Below are positions 2,650 through 25,285 of a DNA stretch of 32,000 nucleotides, in pieces. Origin of the DNA: Pseudothioglobus sp. nBUS_23 (GTDB lineage Bacteria > Pseudomonadota > Gammaproteobacteria > PS1 > Pseudothioglobaceae). The notes under the pieces are model-generated. The model was not told the DNA's origin, made no database searches, and saw only the letters and a list, made by a program, of their open reading frames with translations. Made by a program: the position numbers and the translations under genes. Numbering within the stretch: position 1 is the first letter of the stretch; the number at the start of each line of letters is the position of its first letter. Where the stretch lies: assembly GCF_051201565.1 (NCBI RefSeq), contig NZ_CP179200.1:1380001-1412000 (forward strand). Direction: 5' to 3'.

Positions 2650-3711
2650 TTAGAACTTAGAGGCGATTTGGTCAAATAGTTCTGCGCTATAACTAATCGT
2701 TTTCTCGTCATTTTCTTCACTAAGGTCAACAAAGATTACTCTAGTTTGTGAATTGATATCTTCTTTCAGAATTAATTGATACGTTTTGGTCATCGATGCA
2801 CTAGCAAGGAGCTTTGAGAATAAGCTCTTATTTGGAGTGACATTAATAAAGTAACTTCCTTCAATCTGATCACGATCCTCAATATCAATACTAAGTTCAT
2901 CAAGCGCCCATCCTATGAGCTTCCATGATTCCTTTTTATCGAATGGAAATATCAAGTTTGCATAACCTGTTTCAGAGAGCTCAACTATTACATTTGAAAT
3001 ATTTTCAGCTGTATTGGATTGAATTTTAGATACAGCATCTGAACGATCGTTTCCTAGAAAAACCATCAACTGAAGAAGCATTTCAGTTTCAAGTTCAACG
3101 TCTTTTTCTCTTGGCTGCCATACTCTAGTTGCGCCGCTGACGACTTCCCCTATTGAGCTCAATGTTAAGTATACTTCAGACTTCATTGGGTCATCTGTTG
3201 GCTCAATTCTTATTCTATATTTATCAGCAATAGGGAGCCCATATTGAGTTTTTAATGCTTTCGACAATGCAGCGCGTATTGAGCCCAATGACTTATCTGG
3301 AACTTGCGTCTCAATTTCGAGGTAATCTGTCTCAATGAGTCCAATTTTTTGATTTTCATTCTCTATTTTGAAGCCATAAGAGCGAAAAAATTCTTTTGAC
3401 AAAACCCAAACCTCATTTGGAGAAAGATTAACTAAAAGCCAACGACGATATTTATCTCTTTGAATCTCAATATTTTGAACCCTCTGTGCAACTTCTCCAT
3501 CATCAGCAATTTCCTCAACTTCAGTTAAGGCCTGAAGAGCGCTAGGCTTAGTAAGATCTGGAGGAATAATAAGAGAATCAACTTTTTCGTCAGCTTGATA
3601 ATTGATATCCCGACTGCCTAAACCAATTTCCTTTACTGGATCAGTGACTTTTGAGCAGCTAGCTAAAAATAAACTTATTAATACAATATTAAAATAATTT
3701 ACAATCTTCAT
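2650..3711 (-). CDS. bamC: Outer-membrane protein assembly factor BamC (NlpB) lipoprotein
   Basis: 353 aa. Lipobox LFLASC|S. Collinear with E. coli NlpB at LIIPPDLTKP and VWVLSKEFF..YGFKIE.E....GLIETDY. Sits immediately after dapA with an ATGA overlap, the classical dapA-bamC arrangement. Confidence 0.85.
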   Translation of the reverse strand: MKIVNYFNIVLISLFLASCSKVTDPVKEIGLGSRDINYQADEKVDSLIIPPDLTKPSALQALTEVEEIADDGEVAQRVQNIEIQRDKYRRWLLVNLSPNEVWVLSKEFFRSYGFKIENENQKIGLIETDYLEIETQVPDKSLGSIRAALSKALKTQYGLPIADKYRIRIEPTDDPMKSEVYLTLSSIGEVVSGATRVWQPREKDVELETEMLLQLMVFLGNDRSDAVSKIQSNTAENISNVIVELSETGYANLIFPFDKKESWKLIGWALDELSIDIEDRDQIEGSYFINVTPNKSLFSKLLASASMTKTYQLILKEDINSQTRVIFVDLSEENDEKTISYSAELFDQIASKF

Positions 3712-12037: not shown

Positions 12038-12122
12038 TGGTGCGGAAGGAGAGACTCGAACTCTCACGTCTTGCGACACTGGAACCTAAATCCAGCGTGT
12101 CTACCAATTCCACCACTCCCGC
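12038..12122 (-). tRNA. tRNA-Leu (anticodon UAG)
   Basis: 85-nt cloverleaf read on the minus strand. Acceptor GCGGGAG/CTTCCGC (one G-U). D-loop with GG. Anticodon stem CTGGA/TCCAG with loop TTTAGGT. Long variable arm GTCGCAAGAC (class II). T-arm GAGAG-TTCGAGT-CTCTC. Discriminator A and encoded CCA. Confidence 0.93.
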
Positions 12123-20941: not shown

Positions 20942-21499
20942 ATGATAAATGAAATTCATAGTGATGCAAATAGTCGAATGGATAAATCACTTGCCTCTCT
21001 TGAAAATGACTTCAGCAAAATTCGAGCTGGAAGAGCGCATCCATCTCTGCTTGAACAGGTTACTGTAGAGTACTATGGCGCAATGGTGCCTTTATCACAG
21101 GTCTCAAACATTACTGCAGAGGATGCAAGGACGTTGAAGGTTTCGCCTTGGGAAAAGGATATGGTTGGTCCGATTGAAAAAGCAATTTTGACTTCTGATT
21201 TAGGCCTTAATCCAAATACTCAGGGGCAGGTAATGCGTATACCCCTTCCACCTCTCACAGAAGATCGAAGAAGAGAACTCGTAAGGGTTGTTAGAGATGA
21301 AGCAGAAAATGCTAGAGTCGCAGTTAGAAATATTCGTAGAGATGCAATATCTGACTTTAGAGAGCTTCTCAAAGAAAAGGAAATTTCTGAGGATGAGGCT
21401 AGAAAGGCTGAAGACAATATTCAAAAAATTACTGACCAGCACATAGCATCAATTGACGGCTCTTTAAGCGACAAAGAGAACTCTCTACTTGAGATTTAG
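20942..21499 (+). CDS. frr: Ribosome recycling factor
   Basis: 185 aa. Contains [33 protein letters not shown]-like and RNIRRDA. Confidence 0.96.
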
Positions 21500-21509
21500 A
21501 AAAGCTGAT

Positions 21510-23111
21510 CTATCTTTTTGAGCCAACACAATCGATATACTTTTGCCACCTATTCGCTGTGAATTCAGTTCCATTGGTCACTTGTGGCCCCACATTTCCA
21601 AGGTAACCACCGGCTAATGCTTTTTTGAATAGTTCAATATTACTCTCAGATAAACCTAGATTAACTTTGCAGTAATCGTGGATTGCCTCGGTTACAATTT
21701 CTCCAGAAATCGCTCCAACAAACTCTTCTTCTGCCAACTTATCTGTCGCCTCTTTAATGAGCTCCTCCGAAATAGTTGACTTATACTCTCCAGATAAATT
21801 GAACTCTTCTAACTCTGCAAGTAAGTCATCCTTGATCTTTGTAACTCTTTTTTCATAGGCTACTTTTGCTTGATAAGCAGCAGTTGATGCGGCAGCAGCA
21901 GCTTTTTCATCTTCTAACTTTTGCAGGAAAGCCTCAAGTGCAGCAGCTCTTGCCATTTCCTGTAATATTTCTGCCATCATCTCTGCAGAAGCTAGTTCTG
22001 CCTCGAGCTGTGCTTCAAATGCAGCGAGCTCTGCTTCTAATAGCGAGTCTCTATAGGCCTGAGTCGCAGCAGCAGCGGCCGCTCTTTCATGCTCTAACTT
22101 TTGCTGGAATGCAGCAAGTGCAGCAGCTCTTGCCATTTCTTCTTCAATCTCTGCCATCATCTCTGCAGCAGCTAGTTCTGCCTCGAGCTGTGCTTCGAAT
22201 AAAGCAAGCTCTTTTTCAATGGCTAGTTGTTCCATACGAGAGACTATTTCAGCATCTCTAGCTAACTTGGATTGATAGGCAGCAGTTGATTTTGCAGCGG
22301 CCGCTCTTTCATGCTCTAACTTTTGCTGGAATGCAGCAAGTGCAGCAGCTCTTGCCATTTCTTCTTCAATCTCTGCCATCATCTCTGCAGCAGCTAGTTC
22401 TGCCTCGAGCTGTGCTTCGAATAAAGCAAGCTCTTTTTCAATGGCTAGTTGTTCCATACGAGAGACTATTTCAGCATCTCTAGCTAACTTGGATTGATAG
22501 GCAGCAGTTGATTTTGCAGCAGCGGCTCTTTCATGCTCTAACTTTTGCTGGAATGCAGCAAGTGCAGCAGCTCTTGCCATTTCTTCTTCAATCTCTGCCA
22601 TCATCTCTGCAGCAGCTAGCTTAGCCTGAATTGCAGCTTCTGAATCCGCAAATACAAAAATCATTTGCTCTGGATCTTCCTCAATTGATACAATCAAATC
22701 TGAACATGGGACAACAAAATCCATAACAAACTCTTCAATTGTTAAAACATTCGAGCCTTTTCCTACGAGTTTGTCACCAATTGAAAAGGATCTAAAACCT
22801 GTTTCAGCAGTTTGATAATAAGTGAGCTGTTTTTTTTCTGAGTCATAGGACTCAACAATTGCCTTAACATTGCTTGAGCTCATTATTTCATCACCTTGAT
22901 TAAATGAACCTTCTCCCTTAAGTAGCATCACTGAGGTTATGTTGTCATCTTCATCGATATCAGTTTCTAGCTGATCAAAACAGGGGTCTTTCATCAAAAC
23001 CATATCTAGCTCTTCCTGAAGTACAGAAATCTCATCACCCACAGAGTAAACAGAAGAAGACATTAGAAGGATAAAAAAGGAGGAAAGAAAGCTACTAAAA
23101 AATTTATTCAT
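21510..23111 (-). CDS. Uncharacterised secreted protein: signal peptide, ~140-aa N-terminal domain, four Ala/Glu-rich helical repeat modules, and a two-Cys C-terminal domain (downstream paralogue)
   Basis: 533-aa ORF with signal-like N-terminus MNKFFSSFLSSFFILLMSSSVYS|VG. The 74-aa module AAAEMMAEIEEEMARAAALAAFQQKLEHERAAAAKSTAAYQSKLARDAEIVSRMEQLAIEKELALFEAQLEAEL is repeated exactly. The C-terminus CKVNLGLS...NGTEF...RW..Y.DC is shared with the neighbouring gene. No family recognised. Confidence 0.8.
   Translation of the reverse strand: MNKFFSSFLSSFFILLMSSSVYSVGDEISVLQEELDMVLMKDPCFDQLETDIDEDDNITSVMLLKGEGSFNQGDEIMSSSNVKAIVESYDSEKKQLTYYQTAETGFRSFSIGDKLVGKGSNVLTIEEFVMDFVVPCSDLIVSIEEDPEQMIFVFADSEAAIQAKLAAAEMMAEIEEEMARAAALAAFQQKLEHERAAAAKSTAAYQSKLARDAEIVSRMEQLAIEKELALFEAQLEAELAAAEMMAEIEEEMARAAALAAFQQKLEHERAAAAKSTAAYQSKLARDAEIVSRMEQLAIEKELALFEAQLEAELAAAEMMAEIEEEMARAAALAAFQQKLEHERAAAAAATQAYRDSLLEAELAAFEAQLEAELASAEMMAEILQEMARAAALEAFLQKLEDEKAAAAASTAAYQAKVAYEKRVTKIKDDLLAELEEFNLSGEYKSTISEELIKEATDKLAEEEFVGAISGEIVTEAIHDYCKVNLGLSESNIELFKKALAGGYLGNVGPQVTNGTEFTANRWQKYIDCVGSKR
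21873..22121. repeat. Dispersed repeat copy 1, shared with 23470-23718 in the paralogous gene
   Basis: Gap-free hand alignment at a constant offset of 1597 nt gives about 20 mismatches in about 250 nt. The shared sequence includes gctttttcatcttctaacttttgcaggaaagcctcaagtgcagcagctcttgccatttc... and ctagttctgcctcgagctgtgcttcaaatgcagcgagctctgcttctaatagcgagtctctataggc. Confidence 0.85.
22081..22619. repeat. Near-perfect 222-bp (74-codon) tandem repeat, about 2.4 copies, inside the 533-aa gene
   Basis: The string gctctttcatgctctaacttttgctggaatgcagcaagtgcagcagctcttgcc... recurs at 22081, 22303 and 22525. Copies 1 and 2 differ only at a few nt at the unit junction (gcagcggcc vs gcagcagcg). Copy 3 is identical for about 95 nt and then diverges. 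Confidence 0.95.
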
Positions 23112-23126
23112 TTGAAGATTATAAAT

Positions 23127-23158
23127 AAAAAAACCCAGAGCAAGCTCTGGGTTTTTTT
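23127..23158 (-). terminator. Strong symmetric intrinsic terminator (A7-CCCAGAG-CAAG-CTCTGGG-T7) between the two repeat-protein genes
   Basis: 7-bp GC-rich stem 23134-23140/23145-23151 with a 4-nt loop, flanked by an A7 run and a T7 run, so a T-tract follows the stem on either strand. It lies 56 nt after the stop of the 338-aa gene. Confidence 0.85.
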
Positions 23159-23214
23159 AATTTTGAACTAAAGTTATGTTAAATCATCATAACAAAAGAC
23201 TCTAGCCTTATAAG

Positions 23215-24231
23215 TTAGAATGGATTGACATAATTACTTACGCAGTTTGCATAAGCATCCCATCTACTGGCACCAAACTCTGTACCATTTGAACTCTGAG
23301 GACCTTTATTGAATAAGGTTCCATCAGCCAAAGCAGTTTCGAAAAGAGCAATGTTGGCATCGGATAAGCCCAGAGCATACTTGCATGCTTCATGAGCCTC
23401 TTCAGTTACCACTATCACCTCATCTTCTACCACGAGTTCTCCAATCACTTCATCCTCAAGAGATGCTCTATAGGCAGCAGTTGCCGCAGCAGCAGCAGCT
23501 TTTTCATCTTCTAACTTTTGCAGGAAAGCCTCAAGTGCAGCAGCTCTTGCCATTTCTTCTTCAATCTCTGCCATCATCTCTGCAGCAGCTAGTTCTGCCT
23601 CGAGCTGTGCTTCAAATGCAGCGAGCTCTGCTTCTAATAGCGAGTCTCTATAGGCTTGAGTTGCAGCAGCGGCAGCGGCTCTTTCATCCTCTAACTTTTG
23701 TTGGAATGCAGCGAGTGCCATTTCTCTTTCAATCTCAGCCATCATTTCTGCAGCAGCAGCCTCGGCAGCAAGTTGCGCTTCGAAAGCAGCTATTTCTTTT
23801 TCAATTTCAATTTCTGCCATACGAGCAGCAATCTCAGCGTCTCTGGCTAACTTAGATTGATAAGCAGCAGTTGATTTTGCTGCAGCAGCACGCTCTTCCT
23901 CAAGTTTTTGTTGGAAAGCTTCAAGTGCAGCTTGTCTAGCCATCTCAGCCTCAATCTCAGCCATCATTTCTTGAGCAGCTAATTCAGCTTCAAGTTGCGC
24001 TTCAAAAGCGGCGAGTTCATTTTCAACTTTTTGTTCTGCAAGTGCAGCTTCCATTTCTGCTTTAAACGCATCAATTTCAGCTTTCGCTTGTTCTTCAGCA
24101 AGCTGGGCTTCAAATGCAGCTAATTCTTCATCAAGGTTTTCATAATAGACCTGATCCCTGTCATCGCCACCTGCATAGACATTAAGTGTCAAAAACAGAA
24201 GCGCTAAAAATTTTATTGATTTATTAATCAC
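23215..24231 (-). CDS. Uncharacterised secreted protein: signal peptide, Ala/Glu-rich helical repeat modules, and a two-Cys C-terminal domain (upstream paralogue)
   Basis: 338-aa ORF. GTG start (plus-strand cac at 24229-24231) preceded by AGGGGA 5 nt upstream. Signal peptide MINKSIKFLALLFLTLNVYA|GGDD. Repeated ELAAFEAQLEAELAAAEMMAEIE.EMAR.AALEAFQQKLE.ERAAAAA modules. C-terminus CKYALGLS...NGTEF...RW..Y.NC. Confidence 0.8.
   Translation of the reverse strand: MINKSIKFLALLFLTLNVYAGGDDRDQVYYENLDEELAAFEAQLAEEQAKAEIDAFKAEMEAALAEQKVENELAAFEAQLEAELAAQEMMAEIEAEMARQAALEAFQQKLEEERAAAAKSTAAYQSKLARDAEIAARMAEIEIEKEIAAFEAQLAAEAAAAEMMAEIEREMALAAFQQKLEDERAAAAAATQAYRDSLLEAELAAFEAQLEAELAAAEMMAEIEEEMARAAALEAFLQKLEDEKAAAAAATAAYRASLEDEVIGELVVEDEVIVVTEEAHEACKYALGLSDANIALFETALADGTLFNKGPQSSNGTEFGASRWDAYANCVSNYVNPF
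23470..23718. repeat. Dispersed repeat copy 2, shared with 21873-22121
   Basis: Same alignment as for 21873-22121. Confidence 0.85.
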
Positions 24232-24319
24232 GTTAATCCCCTAAAAGAGTTAAAAGTAACATATATATGTATCTACACTTTATTTTATACTAGATATATT
24301 TTGCTGAAAGATCTAATTC

Positions 24320-25285
24320 ATGAAATTATTTGAAGATAAGTTTGAGTCATTTTTTAGTGATACAGAACTCCAAAAATTCAAGGAAGAGTGCCTGCGAAAA
24401 AGCCTTATGGCGTTCAACATTAAGAATGGCAATGTCCCTAAATGGACTGATGCATTAAACAAGTTAAATTCTACTAAAAAGGGCGAATTAGGTCTAAATG
24501 ATCCATATATATCAATCAAAAATATTGACTCCTCTTCAGAAAATATTGAAACCAATTTGAAGCAATTATTACCCTGGCGAAAAGGTCCATTTATTCTCAA
24601 TAATTTAAAATTAGAGAGCGAGTGGATTGGAGACTTAAAATGGCAACGTATCAAAAACAAGATTAAACCGCTCAAAAATAAACGGGTTCTTGATGTAGGT
24701 GCTGGAAACGGATATTTCACAATTAGGATGGCCCTTGAAGGTGCAAGTAAGGCGCTTGGAGTTGAACCTTTTCTGTTATTCAATTATCAATTTGCAGCAA
24801 TCGATACTTTGACTAAAAGCAACTCAAACTCAATGCTGATTCCATTAAGGCTCGAAGAATTACCAAATATGCCTATATTTGAAAGTGTGTTTTCTATGGG
24901 GGTACTCTATCATCAGAGAGATCATTTGGAGCACCTATCTAAGCTAAAAAAAATGATGGCGCCGAACTCAGAACTGATACTTGAAACATTGATAGTTGAT
25001 GGTCAAAAAAACTACGCATTAATTCCTGAAGGAAGGTACGCAAACATGAGGAATGTTCATTGTCTTCCGAGCACTGAGACACTCAAGTCTTGGCTTTCTG
25101 ATGTGGGCTTTAGAAGTATAAAGCTTATAGATGTCTCTGTAACAACTCCTCAAGAACAAAGAAAAACCCCATGGATTGGAGATAACCCAGCATCACTTGA
25201 GGATTTTCTTGATCCTTCTAATCCGTCACTAACAATTGAAGGTTATCCAGCGCCAAAGCGAGCAATACTTACATGCAGCAACTAA
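24320..25285 (+). CDS. cmoB: tRNA U34 carboxymethyltransferase
   Basis: 321 aa, collinear with E. coli CmoB at LLPWRKGPF, WIGDLKW, VLDVGAGNGY, FSMGVLYHQRDHLEHL, LETLVIDG, YANMRNV and EGYPAPKRAIL. Confidence 0.93.
   Translation: MKLFEDKFESFFSDTELQKFKEECLRKSLMAFNIKNGNVPKWTDALNKLNSTKKGELGLNDPYISIKNIDSSSENIETNLKQLLPWRKGPFILNNLKLESEWIGDLKWQRIKNKIKPLKNKRVLDVGAGNGYFTIRMALEGASKALGVEPFLLFNYQFAAIDTLTKSNSNSMLIPLRLEELPNMPIFESVFSMGVLYHQRDHLEHLSKLKKMMAPNSELILETLIVDGQKNYALIPEGRYANMRNVHCLPSTETLKSWLSDVGFRSIKLIDVSVTTPQEQRKTPWIGDNPASLEDFLDPSNPSLTIEGYPAPKRAILTCSN

Follow-up and report, generated by a model that had tools for sequence, protein, structure and literature searches.

What are the two long Ala/Glu-rich genes that stand between frr and cmoB in Pseudothioglobus sp. 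nBUS_23, and do they belong to an envelope system that has not been described? We followed this up in a window of 32,000 nt (contig NZ_CP179200.1, positions 1,380,001 to 1,412,000 of the forward strand), in which they are two neighboring minus-strand open reading frames (ORFs), gene A (23215..24231, 338 aa, GTG start) and gene B (21510..23111, 533 aa, ATG start). An earlier note on this DNA had read them as a same-strand pair of 338 and 533 aa, both ORFs of which we confirmed on the minus strand, and had proposed an undescribed system of secreted helical-repeat proteins. Judged from their sequences, A and B are duplicated members of a family that was found, in these searches, only in the SUP05/Arctic96BD-19 clade (Thioglobaceae). 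This family is real, strongly selected, seen only in that clade and unclassified in curated libraries, but no "system" is demonstrable, as no partner genes were co-located with a family gene in any genome examined.

Conserved Ends Around a Variable Insert

Searches with the C-terminal part of B recovered 78 proteins and those with its N-domain 41, all of them unannotated and mostly fragments of 80–290 aa; the named matches to both queries came from Candidatus (Ca.) Pseudothioglobus singularis or Ca. Thioglobus. A profile of the C-domain, compared with 1.84 billion representative proteins, gave only 79 matches at E ≤ 1e-3. The organism-named bacterial matches, which bear signal peptides, were all assigned to Ca. 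Pseudothioglobus, Ca. Thioglobus, SUP05, or the Bathymodiolus heckerae gill symbiont, and named members include this thiotrophic gill symbiont, a hydrothermal-vent SUP05 symbiont, and several Ca. Thioglobus metagenome-assembled genomes (MAGs).

Three parts are conserved across the family: a Sec leader ending in ..(V/I)A, an almost invariant mature N-terminus (GGDDRD-x-GPVESL(D/E)), and a C-terminal unit of ~60 aa (..V(T/S)..AH..C..L.L.E.NI..F..A...G.LYN.GP....GT.FSP.RWD.YF.C..) in which both Cys are invariant. Membership can be recognized by a Sec leader, the motif GGDD(R)D..E.LD, and a C-x46-C domain with N(I/V)..F, N.GP, and RW..Y, all of which are present in A and B, the motif being degenerate in B. 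The segment between the conserved ends varies from about 15 to 400 aa; the smallest member, from a Ca. Thioglobus MAG, is 109 aa long with ~15 residues between them (P0194), and at the same locus other members carry Ala/Glu-rich helices (P0153), Pro/Thr-rich repeats (P0163), or a Lys-rich tract (P0171). The segment thus tolerates any low-complexity insert. The earlier note had framed the proteins by their Ala/Glu module, which is a lineage-specific insert; the conserved parts are the N-terminal peptide and the C-domain. The ancestral protein was small, ~90 aa when mature, with a Sec leader, the N-terminus, a short variable segment, and the ~60-aa domain with two invariant Cys. In the Pseudothioglobus lineage the gene was duplicated to two to three copies, a 60/74-aa Ala/Glu module was tandemly amplified, and B gained a disulfide-bracketed beta-barrel.

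In every context read, including those of members with different inserts, the family gene is convergent with frr-pyrH-uvrA, and cmoB usually lies on the opposite side. Given that this arrangement holds whatever the insert, the locus is an old, vertically inherited position in Thioglobaceae; comparison of the frr-cmoB interval thereby replaced the view of an odd insertion with that of a syntenic position. In three related loci (L019, L021, and L023) pyrH is no longer beside frr and uvrA directly follows frr, with the adjacency of the family gene and frr retained.

Integrity of the Locus

A and B are paralogs with 60% identity (BLASTP, E 2e-69), and their DNA has a 288-nt stretch in common at 88% identity. 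The exact A protein is present on an independent ENA contig; for the exact B protein we found no other record, and the repeat copy number of B is provisional. The closed chromosome NZ_CP159805 (Ca. Pseudothioglobus sp. Uisw_041; L014) carries three paralogs of 177, 303, and 611 aa between cmoB and frr, the shortest of which (2730-3263, plus strand, 177 aa, one module) lies upstream of the A-type and B-type genes. Two paralogs of 437 and 406 aa occur in SCGC AB-629-P17, and across the clade the gene cluster varies in size from one to three genes. A 442-kb scaffold has the same locus; its family genes are split, as are its uvrA and znuA, which we read as sequencing error. The module spacing of 222, 222, and 180 nt is identical in the window and in L014. 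Genes A and B are real, and the concern that they might be an assembly artefact is answered by the locus in the closed genome and on the 442-kb scaffold with the same 222/180-nt module spacing.

The position of the pair between frr and cmoB, as given in the earlier note, was borne out by Pfam matches on both sides: frr (20942-21499, plus strand) matched RRF with E 2.7e-65, and the CmoB-type methyltransferase gene (24320-25285, plus strand) matched Methyltransf_9 with E 7e-97. The wider neighborhood, also from Pfam, comprises pyrH, uvrA, znuA, a further methyltransferase, and a MOSC protein. Among the seven flanking ORFs scanned none matched a mobility gene, in agreement with the note, and no genes dedicated to outer-membrane export lie adjacent to the pair. 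Two plus-strand ORFs run antisense through the repeats (21866-22261 and 23385-23855; 131 and 156 aa; Gln/Leu/Pro-rich); they are mirror images of GCN/GAR codon repeats without independent support. Rfam gave no RNA element at the locus, and its sole match in the window was a tRNA gene at 12041-12122 on the minus strand (55.6 bits).

Ala/Glu Modules

Gene A is the A-type paralog, with a signal peptide, the N-terminal motif, four Ala/Glu modules, and the C-domain; gene B is the B-type paralog. The helical repeat region of A (23446..24126, minus strand) covers residues 36-262, contains no Gly or Pro, and has a ratio of nonsynonymous to synonymous substitution rates (dN/dS) of ~0.14 against L014. 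The corresponding region of B (21870..22646, minus strand; residues 156-414) includes a tandem array of a 222-bp unit in 2.5 copies at 99% identity (22072-22619, Tandem Repeats Finder). Gly and Pro are absent from residues 23-263 of A and 148-440 of B. About four acidic, Ala-rich modules per protein had been claimed, and four were found in each: in A, modules of 36, 74, and 56 aa and a fourth of ~56 aa that runs into the C-terminal region; in B, modules of 67, 74, and 60 aa and a fourth of ~54 aa. Each module has three Met (MMAEIEEEM), Thr is outside the ten commonest residues of A and B, and the mature proteins have an isoelectric point (pI) of about 4.1-4.4 and a net charge of about -50 to -55. 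The first B module was predicted by AlphaFold2 (AF2) to be a continuous helix. The hydrophobic periodicity has a peak at 3.35 residues that exceeds all 300 shuffles, so that the amphipathic part of the proposed "amphipathic helix or coiled coil" stands, whereas a clean heptad is lacking.

Complete B-type proteins in species-representative genomes are 325 to 611 aa long and complete A-type ones 177 to 437 aa; contig ends truncate ~17 of 40 family ORFs. At the DNA level, module cores are 94-99% identical within a genome and at most 73-82% identical between genomes, and all module copies of both paralogs have genome-specific substitutions in common, such as FQAKLAADK in L014 and FQQKLE(H/D)ER in the window. 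From these patterns the modules undergo concerted evolution by recombination or gene conversion, which also explains the chimeric and frameshifted proteins seen in metagenome assemblies, such as P0080, where a B N-terminus is joined to an A C-terminus. Every region is nevertheless under purifying selection, including the repeat sequence. In comparison with the close relative L005, dN/dS was 0.01 both in the C-domain and in the B linker, and reached 0.13 in the B N-domain and 0.14 in the repeats; with L014 as the reference the repeats gave 0.09-0.14, so that constraint extends to the repeats as well.

The A-type protein of SCGC AB-629-P17 (L021, 3538-4851, plus strand) has six tandem copies of a different 20-aa unit, LEADLASDALEKEIAEFEAQ; amplification in this insert region has thus involved a second type of repeat. 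Public gene calls at the locus are often fragments, frameshifted, or B/A chimeras (P0080, P0082, P0088, P0092, P0116; L002), and some carry misleading automatic names: colicin import membrane protein, signal recognition particle (SRP) GTPase, chorismate mutase, or type VI secretion system (T6SS) component.

Leaders and Expression Signals

The Sec-type leaders without a lipobox Cys proposed in the earlier note are supported by our reading of the sequences and by their conservation in homologues; the putative signal peptides were read from the sequence. The putative signal peptide of A (24172..24231, minus strand; residues 1-20, MINKSIKFLALLFLTLNVYA) is conserved in L005, L014, L019, L021, and L025, and is followed by the mature N-terminal motif (24127..24171, minus strand; GGDDRDQVYYENLDE; family motif GGDDRD..E.LD in alignment A6). 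In B, leader and motif together span 22992..23111 (minus strand), with signal residues 1-23 and the motif VGDEISVLQEELDMVLM; the degenerate B form is VGDEISVLQEELD, and close relatives carry GGDDISVLQEELD. The predicted junctions are MINKSIKFLALLFLTLNVYA before GGDD in A and MNKFFSSFLSSFFILLMSSSVYS before VGDE in B. Each leader runs from a K-containing n-region through a hydrophobic core to a small-residue c-region (..NVYA then GGDD; ..SVYS then VGDE), and neither contains Cys.

AGGDDRD is almost invariant across the family (alignment A6). The leader end is lipobox-like, with (V/I)-A-G, then Gly at the site of the lipoprotein Cys, and then Asp-Asp (alignment A6; window 24172-24180), so that the family leader looks like a lipoprotein signal with its Cys swapped for Gly; none of the family members seen has Cys at this position. 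The GG pair also suggested a double-glycine bacteriocin leader, which was ruled out, as the leader is a typical hydrophobic Sec signal.

The claim that the upstream gene has its own Shine-Dalgarno sequence and terminator also held. A Shine-Dalgarno-like AGGGGA (24237..24242, minus strand) lies 5 nt ahead of the GTG of A, and an intrinsic-terminator-like hairpin of 15 pairs with a T-run (23126..23159, minus strand) follows the gene. The hairpin is conserved in nine relatives; in their alignment 98.6% of cells are paired, and one pair occurs as A-U, G-C, and G-U. A conserved TATAAT (23118..23123, minus strand) ends 7 nt ahead of the A of B's ATG, and no Shine-Dalgarno sequence was found ahead of B. 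This hairpin-then-TATAAT layout (23112-23160) is kept in L005, L006, L010, L014, L018, L019, L021, L022, and L023, while the remaining spacer has diverged. The geometry fits a leaderless mRNA or a promoter overlapping the terminator, and B may possibly start leaderless.

Domains Bracketed by Cysteines

In line with the earlier note, each protein has a C-terminal domain bracketed by two Cys. The C-terminal region of A (23218..23445, minus strand; residues 263-338) lies between C283 and C330 as its bracketing Cys and, going by the AF2 secondary structure of its homologue in B, is predicted to fold as a beta-hairpin with three helices. The C-domain of B (21513..21716, minus strand; residues 466-533) is bracketed by C481 and C528 and has a dN/dS of 0.01-0.08. 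The AF2 model of the B C-region, with a predicted local distance difference test (pLDDT) score of 72, contains two linker helices, a beta-hairpin, three helices, and a long conserved loop.

The single architecture that the note had assigned to both proteins holds for leader, modules, and C-domain, but B adds an N-domain of ~115 aa (C44/C136) and a conserved linker of ~50 aa. This helical linker (21717..21869, minus strand; residues 415-465) has a dN/dS of 0.01 against L005. The N-domain (22647..22991, minus strand; residues 41-155), bracketed by C44 and C136, was modeled with a confident small beta-barrel core (pLDDT 79-90 over construct residues 41-100); Foldseek gave no match to this fold at E < 0.05, and the 41 homologues found by sequence all belong to the same clade.

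Comparison With Known Proteins

The earlier impression that module and terminal domain fit no named family was upheld. We found no convincing match for A, B, the isolated C-domain, or the minimal family in Pfam, NCBIfam, or PHROGs, nothing below E 0.04 in sequence and profile searches of the PDB, and no convincing Foldseek match in the PDB or BFVD, where the best PDB E was 2 in a test for likeness to TolA domain III/TonB_C. Phage_int_SAM_1 (PF02899) matched B at 27.1 bits (cut-off 22.3) and A at 20.9 bits; given that the match is a single stretch in the Ala-rich repeats, that there is no recombinase catalytic domain, and that the protein is exported, we judged it compositional. Weak matches to Tudor_RapA, XseB, CowN, SMC, RsaA_NTD, DUF5484, and phrog_14989 were low-complexity or sub-threshold noise. 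A resemblance of the C-domain pattern to a three-helix domain like PG_binding_1 was unsupported, with no match by hmmscan at E ≤ 10 on 11 members or in PDB profile searches. The kind of protein, an exported repeat-variable envelope protein, is familiar; its domains are without known relatives except uncharacterized phage proteins.

TolA domain II and TonB-type periplasm-spanning proteins are similar in that conserved end modules are joined by a long spacer, Ala/Glu-rich and helical or of low complexity, which differs in length from taxon to taxon, and JGI pipelines have named fragments of the A/B family "colicin import membrane protein". TolA, however, has an N-terminal membrane anchor (domain I), where the A/B family has what appears to be an AXA-like cleavage motif followed by an acidic mature end. 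The family is also acidic with few Lys, unlike TolA, has no Pfam or NCBIfam match to TolA domain III or TonB_C, and lies beside frr, pyrH, uvrA, cmoB, and znuA rather than in a tol-pal or exbBD locus. Braun lipoprotein (Lpp) and other helical envelope spacers are likewise exported helical rods, and the A/B leader end ..(V/I)AG-G is lipobox-like; in contrast to Lpp, the +1 residue is Gly and never Cys (AGG throughout the family alignment; ..YSV in B), there is no C-terminal Lys for linkage to peptidoglycan, and the proteins are much longer and repeat-variable. Phasins and exchangeable apolipoproteins have long Ala-rich amphipathic helices without Gly or Pro, but the A/B family is exported, has conserved globular ends, and gave no Pfam phasin or apolipoprotein match. 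Type I antifreeze proteins have an 11-residue Thr periodicity, whereas the peaks in A and B are at 3.35 and 4.35 residues and Thr is not among their top ten residues.

The weakest significant matches to the C-domain profile were uncharacterized phage proteins (P0176, P0179, P0180, P0182, P0184, P0188; IMG/VR loci L040-L045; also L030 and L033). They and the C-domain have a 42-residue core in common, N(I/L)..F..AL..G.L.N.GP....GT.F...RW..Y, with an hhalign probability of 98.5%, E 2.7e-15, and 50% identity. In contrast to the bacterial members, the phage proteins are without signal peptide and Cys pair, and in them the core lies near the N-terminus, ahead of a charged region and then a distinct tail at the C-terminus. 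One is encoded between a DUF5681 gene and the large terminase (phrog_2, E 6.5e-46); others follow an ORF of 851-905 aa and precede one of 324 or 210 aa, on IMG/VR viral contigs with primase/helicase. This gene order is reminiscent of portal, scaffold, and capsid, which no profile confirms, and by analogy the phage relatives may be scaffold-like head proteins. INPHARED phages gave no tblastn match with the C-domain or P0179, and IMG/VR no match with the bacterial C-domain profile. The core is, from these alignments, a small module common to SUP05 envelope proteins and uncharacterized marine phage proteins, and its presence in both suggests a role in protein-protein interaction.

Discussion

What could such proteins do? 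We tentatively hypothesize, with low confidence, that they form an exported acidic rod in the cell envelope, most likely in the periplasm. The proteins would be exported by Sec, form their disulfides, and stay in the envelope; the two or four conserved Cys imply an oxidizing compartment. Of the envelope compartments, the periplasm is favored because the proteins have only a Sec signal, there are no adjacent export genes, and both the minimal members and the copy from the gill symbiont have the appearance of ordinary small periplasmic proteins. The N-terminal peptide and the C-domain would be the working ends, docking on envelope partners; alternatively, as these two parts are co-conserved, they may pack on each other, with the insert projecting as a helical hairpin. 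The Ala/Glu repeats would form an anionic rod with a net charge of about -50, ~35-43 nm long when extended and half that if folded back. Its role would be structural, as spacer, tether, or charged filler, and gains and losses of repeats would tune its length.

Several points weigh against this hypothesis. The AF2 model of the C-region reaches no more than moderate confidence, at pLDDT 72, and the periodicities of 3.35 and 4.35 residues are harmonics of the 74-aa repeat and not a canonical heptad. An extended helix of 35-43 nm is longer than rough expectation for the periplasm. With 177, 303, and 611 aa, the L014 paralogs differ several-fold in length inside a single genome, which speaks against a fixed-distance ruler. 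Finally, strain-level variation in repeat number and paralog expansion are more typical of surface-exposed than of periplasmic proteins.

This last point bears on the main rival, a surface-exposed fibril or S-layer-associated rod, which we consider rather unlikely. After Sec export, type II secretion or another route would carry such a protein through the outer membrane, its C-domain would be anchored to the outer membrane, lipopolysaccharide, or S-layer, and the rods would form an outer brush whose length shifts with gained and lost repeats under phage or grazer pressure. The family shows repeat-number polymorphism, concerted evolution, and paralog expansion, all of which characterize fibrillar proteins exposed at the surface, among them M protein and the antigen I/II A-region, and the rod exceeds the length expected for the periplasm. 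The C-domain core in common with phage proteins is compatible with an interface exploited by phages. M protein, the antigen I/II A-region, and PspA, all Gram-positive fibrillar proteins, also have Ala/Glu-rich helical tandem repeats with strain-variable copy number and concerted evolution; the A/B host, however, is Gram-negative, and the family has no LPXTG or choline-binding anchor. The score with the antigen I/II-type adhesin profile NF033804 was 13.1 bits against a cut-off of 1500, and no LPXTG was found in A or B.

The surface location also draws support from the hexagonal S-layer found on all cultured Thioglobus strains, PS1 included (PMC6509183). In Ca. T. autotrophicus EF1 the S-layer protein is SP60_01315, a 332-aa protein and the most abundant 34-kDa extracellular protein (PMC6509183). 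Its neighbor SP60_01325 is a 155-aa membrane protein, unlike what the family gene-frr-pyrH order would place there, which speaks weakly against SP60_01315 being a family member. Further against a surface fibril, no outer-membrane translocation or anchoring signal (autotransporter barrel, LPXTG, or CTERM sorting tag) was recognized with Pfam and NCBIfam, and no secretion genes lie nearby. The minimal 9-kDa members resemble ordinary periplasmic proteins, the family also occurs in a mussel gill symbiont, and the phage relatives, which have no signal peptides, are encoded near head or packaging genes rather than tail genes.

Given that the family appears only in a clade of sulfur oxidizers, the proteins might instead coat periplasmic sulfur globules, with amphipathic Ala/Glu/Met/Leu helices lying on hydrophobic elemental sulfur and the polyanionic face outward, as phasins do on polyhydroxybutyrate granules. 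We regard this idea as attractive but quite improbable. Known sulfur globule proteins (Sgp) are rich in Gly and Tyr, a composition that differs from that of A and B, although the ~9-10 kDa of the mature minimal form is of Sgp-like size, and the Sec leaders and the amphipathic signal in the repeats would suit a coat. The clade forms periplasmic sulfur globules, and in Ca. Thioglobus autotrophicus, which stores sulfur in this way, four putative sgp genes are paralogous to one another, with proteins detected for three (PMC6509183). Like these and SgpA-D of purple sulfur bacteria, the A/B family would comprise Sec-exported, paralogous, small structural proteins of sulfur oxidizers with periplasmic globules. 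However, the family core is a disulfide-stabilized globular domain, and no Sgp profile matched in the libraries searched. The conserved parts are a short acidic peptide and a small disulfide domain rather than amphipathic helices, many inserts are Pro/Thr-rich or Lys-rich, and no sulfur-oxidation genes adjoin the family gene in any context read.

A periplasmic polyanion or cation buffer is very unlikely; in it, Ca2+, Mg2+, or trace metals would be bound by the acidic GGDDRD N-terminus and by the repeats, which are rich in Glu and contain Met. The net charge of -50 to -55, the pI of about 4.1-4.4, the three Met per module (MMAEIEEEM), and znuA two genes away would agree with it, but ligand motifs with His or Cys are absent from the repeats, znuA forms a unit of its own in divergent position, and other members have basic or Pro/Thr-rich inserts, so that charge is not a conserved property. 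That the ORFs are mis-assembled or non-coding low-complexity sequence is almost certainly wrong and already largely refuted: many metagenomic homologues are fragmentary, frameshifted, or chimeric (P0080, P0082, P0088, P0092), contig ends truncate 17 of about 40 family ORFs, the exact B protein has no other record, and the exact copy number of a 222-bp repeat at 99% identity is difficult to recover by assembly, but the closed chromosome NZ_CP159805 and the 442-kb scaffold carry intact or recognizable copies with the same module spacing, dN/dS is 0.01-0.14, and conservation extends to leaders, Cys pairs, and regulatory signals.

Among the sulfur oxidizers of the dark ocean and oxygen-minimum zones, SUP05/Arctic96BD-19 bacteria rank with the most abundant, and they include animal symbionts. 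The importance of the finding comes mainly from this ecological weight and from the systematic breakage and mis-annotation of the locus. Near-identical 222-bp repeats break short-read assemblies there, leaving fragments, chimeras, and misleading names (TolA, SRP GTPase, T6SS component), and genome and pangenome analyses of the clade consequently miss or mis-annotate A/B family genes systematically. It is unlikely, in our view, that the family is an unrecognized SUP05 envelope component, as globule coat or outer-membrane/S-layer rod, whose C-domain is a new fold borrowed by phages for head-assembly or virion proteins; if this were true, repeat-length variation would be a strain-level adaptation of envelope geometry or phage resistance. 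A clade-only, strongly selected, exported family at one chromosomal position is likely part of what makes the SUP05 envelope distinctive, for which the S-layer, periplasmic sulfur storage, and phage interfaces are candidate features.

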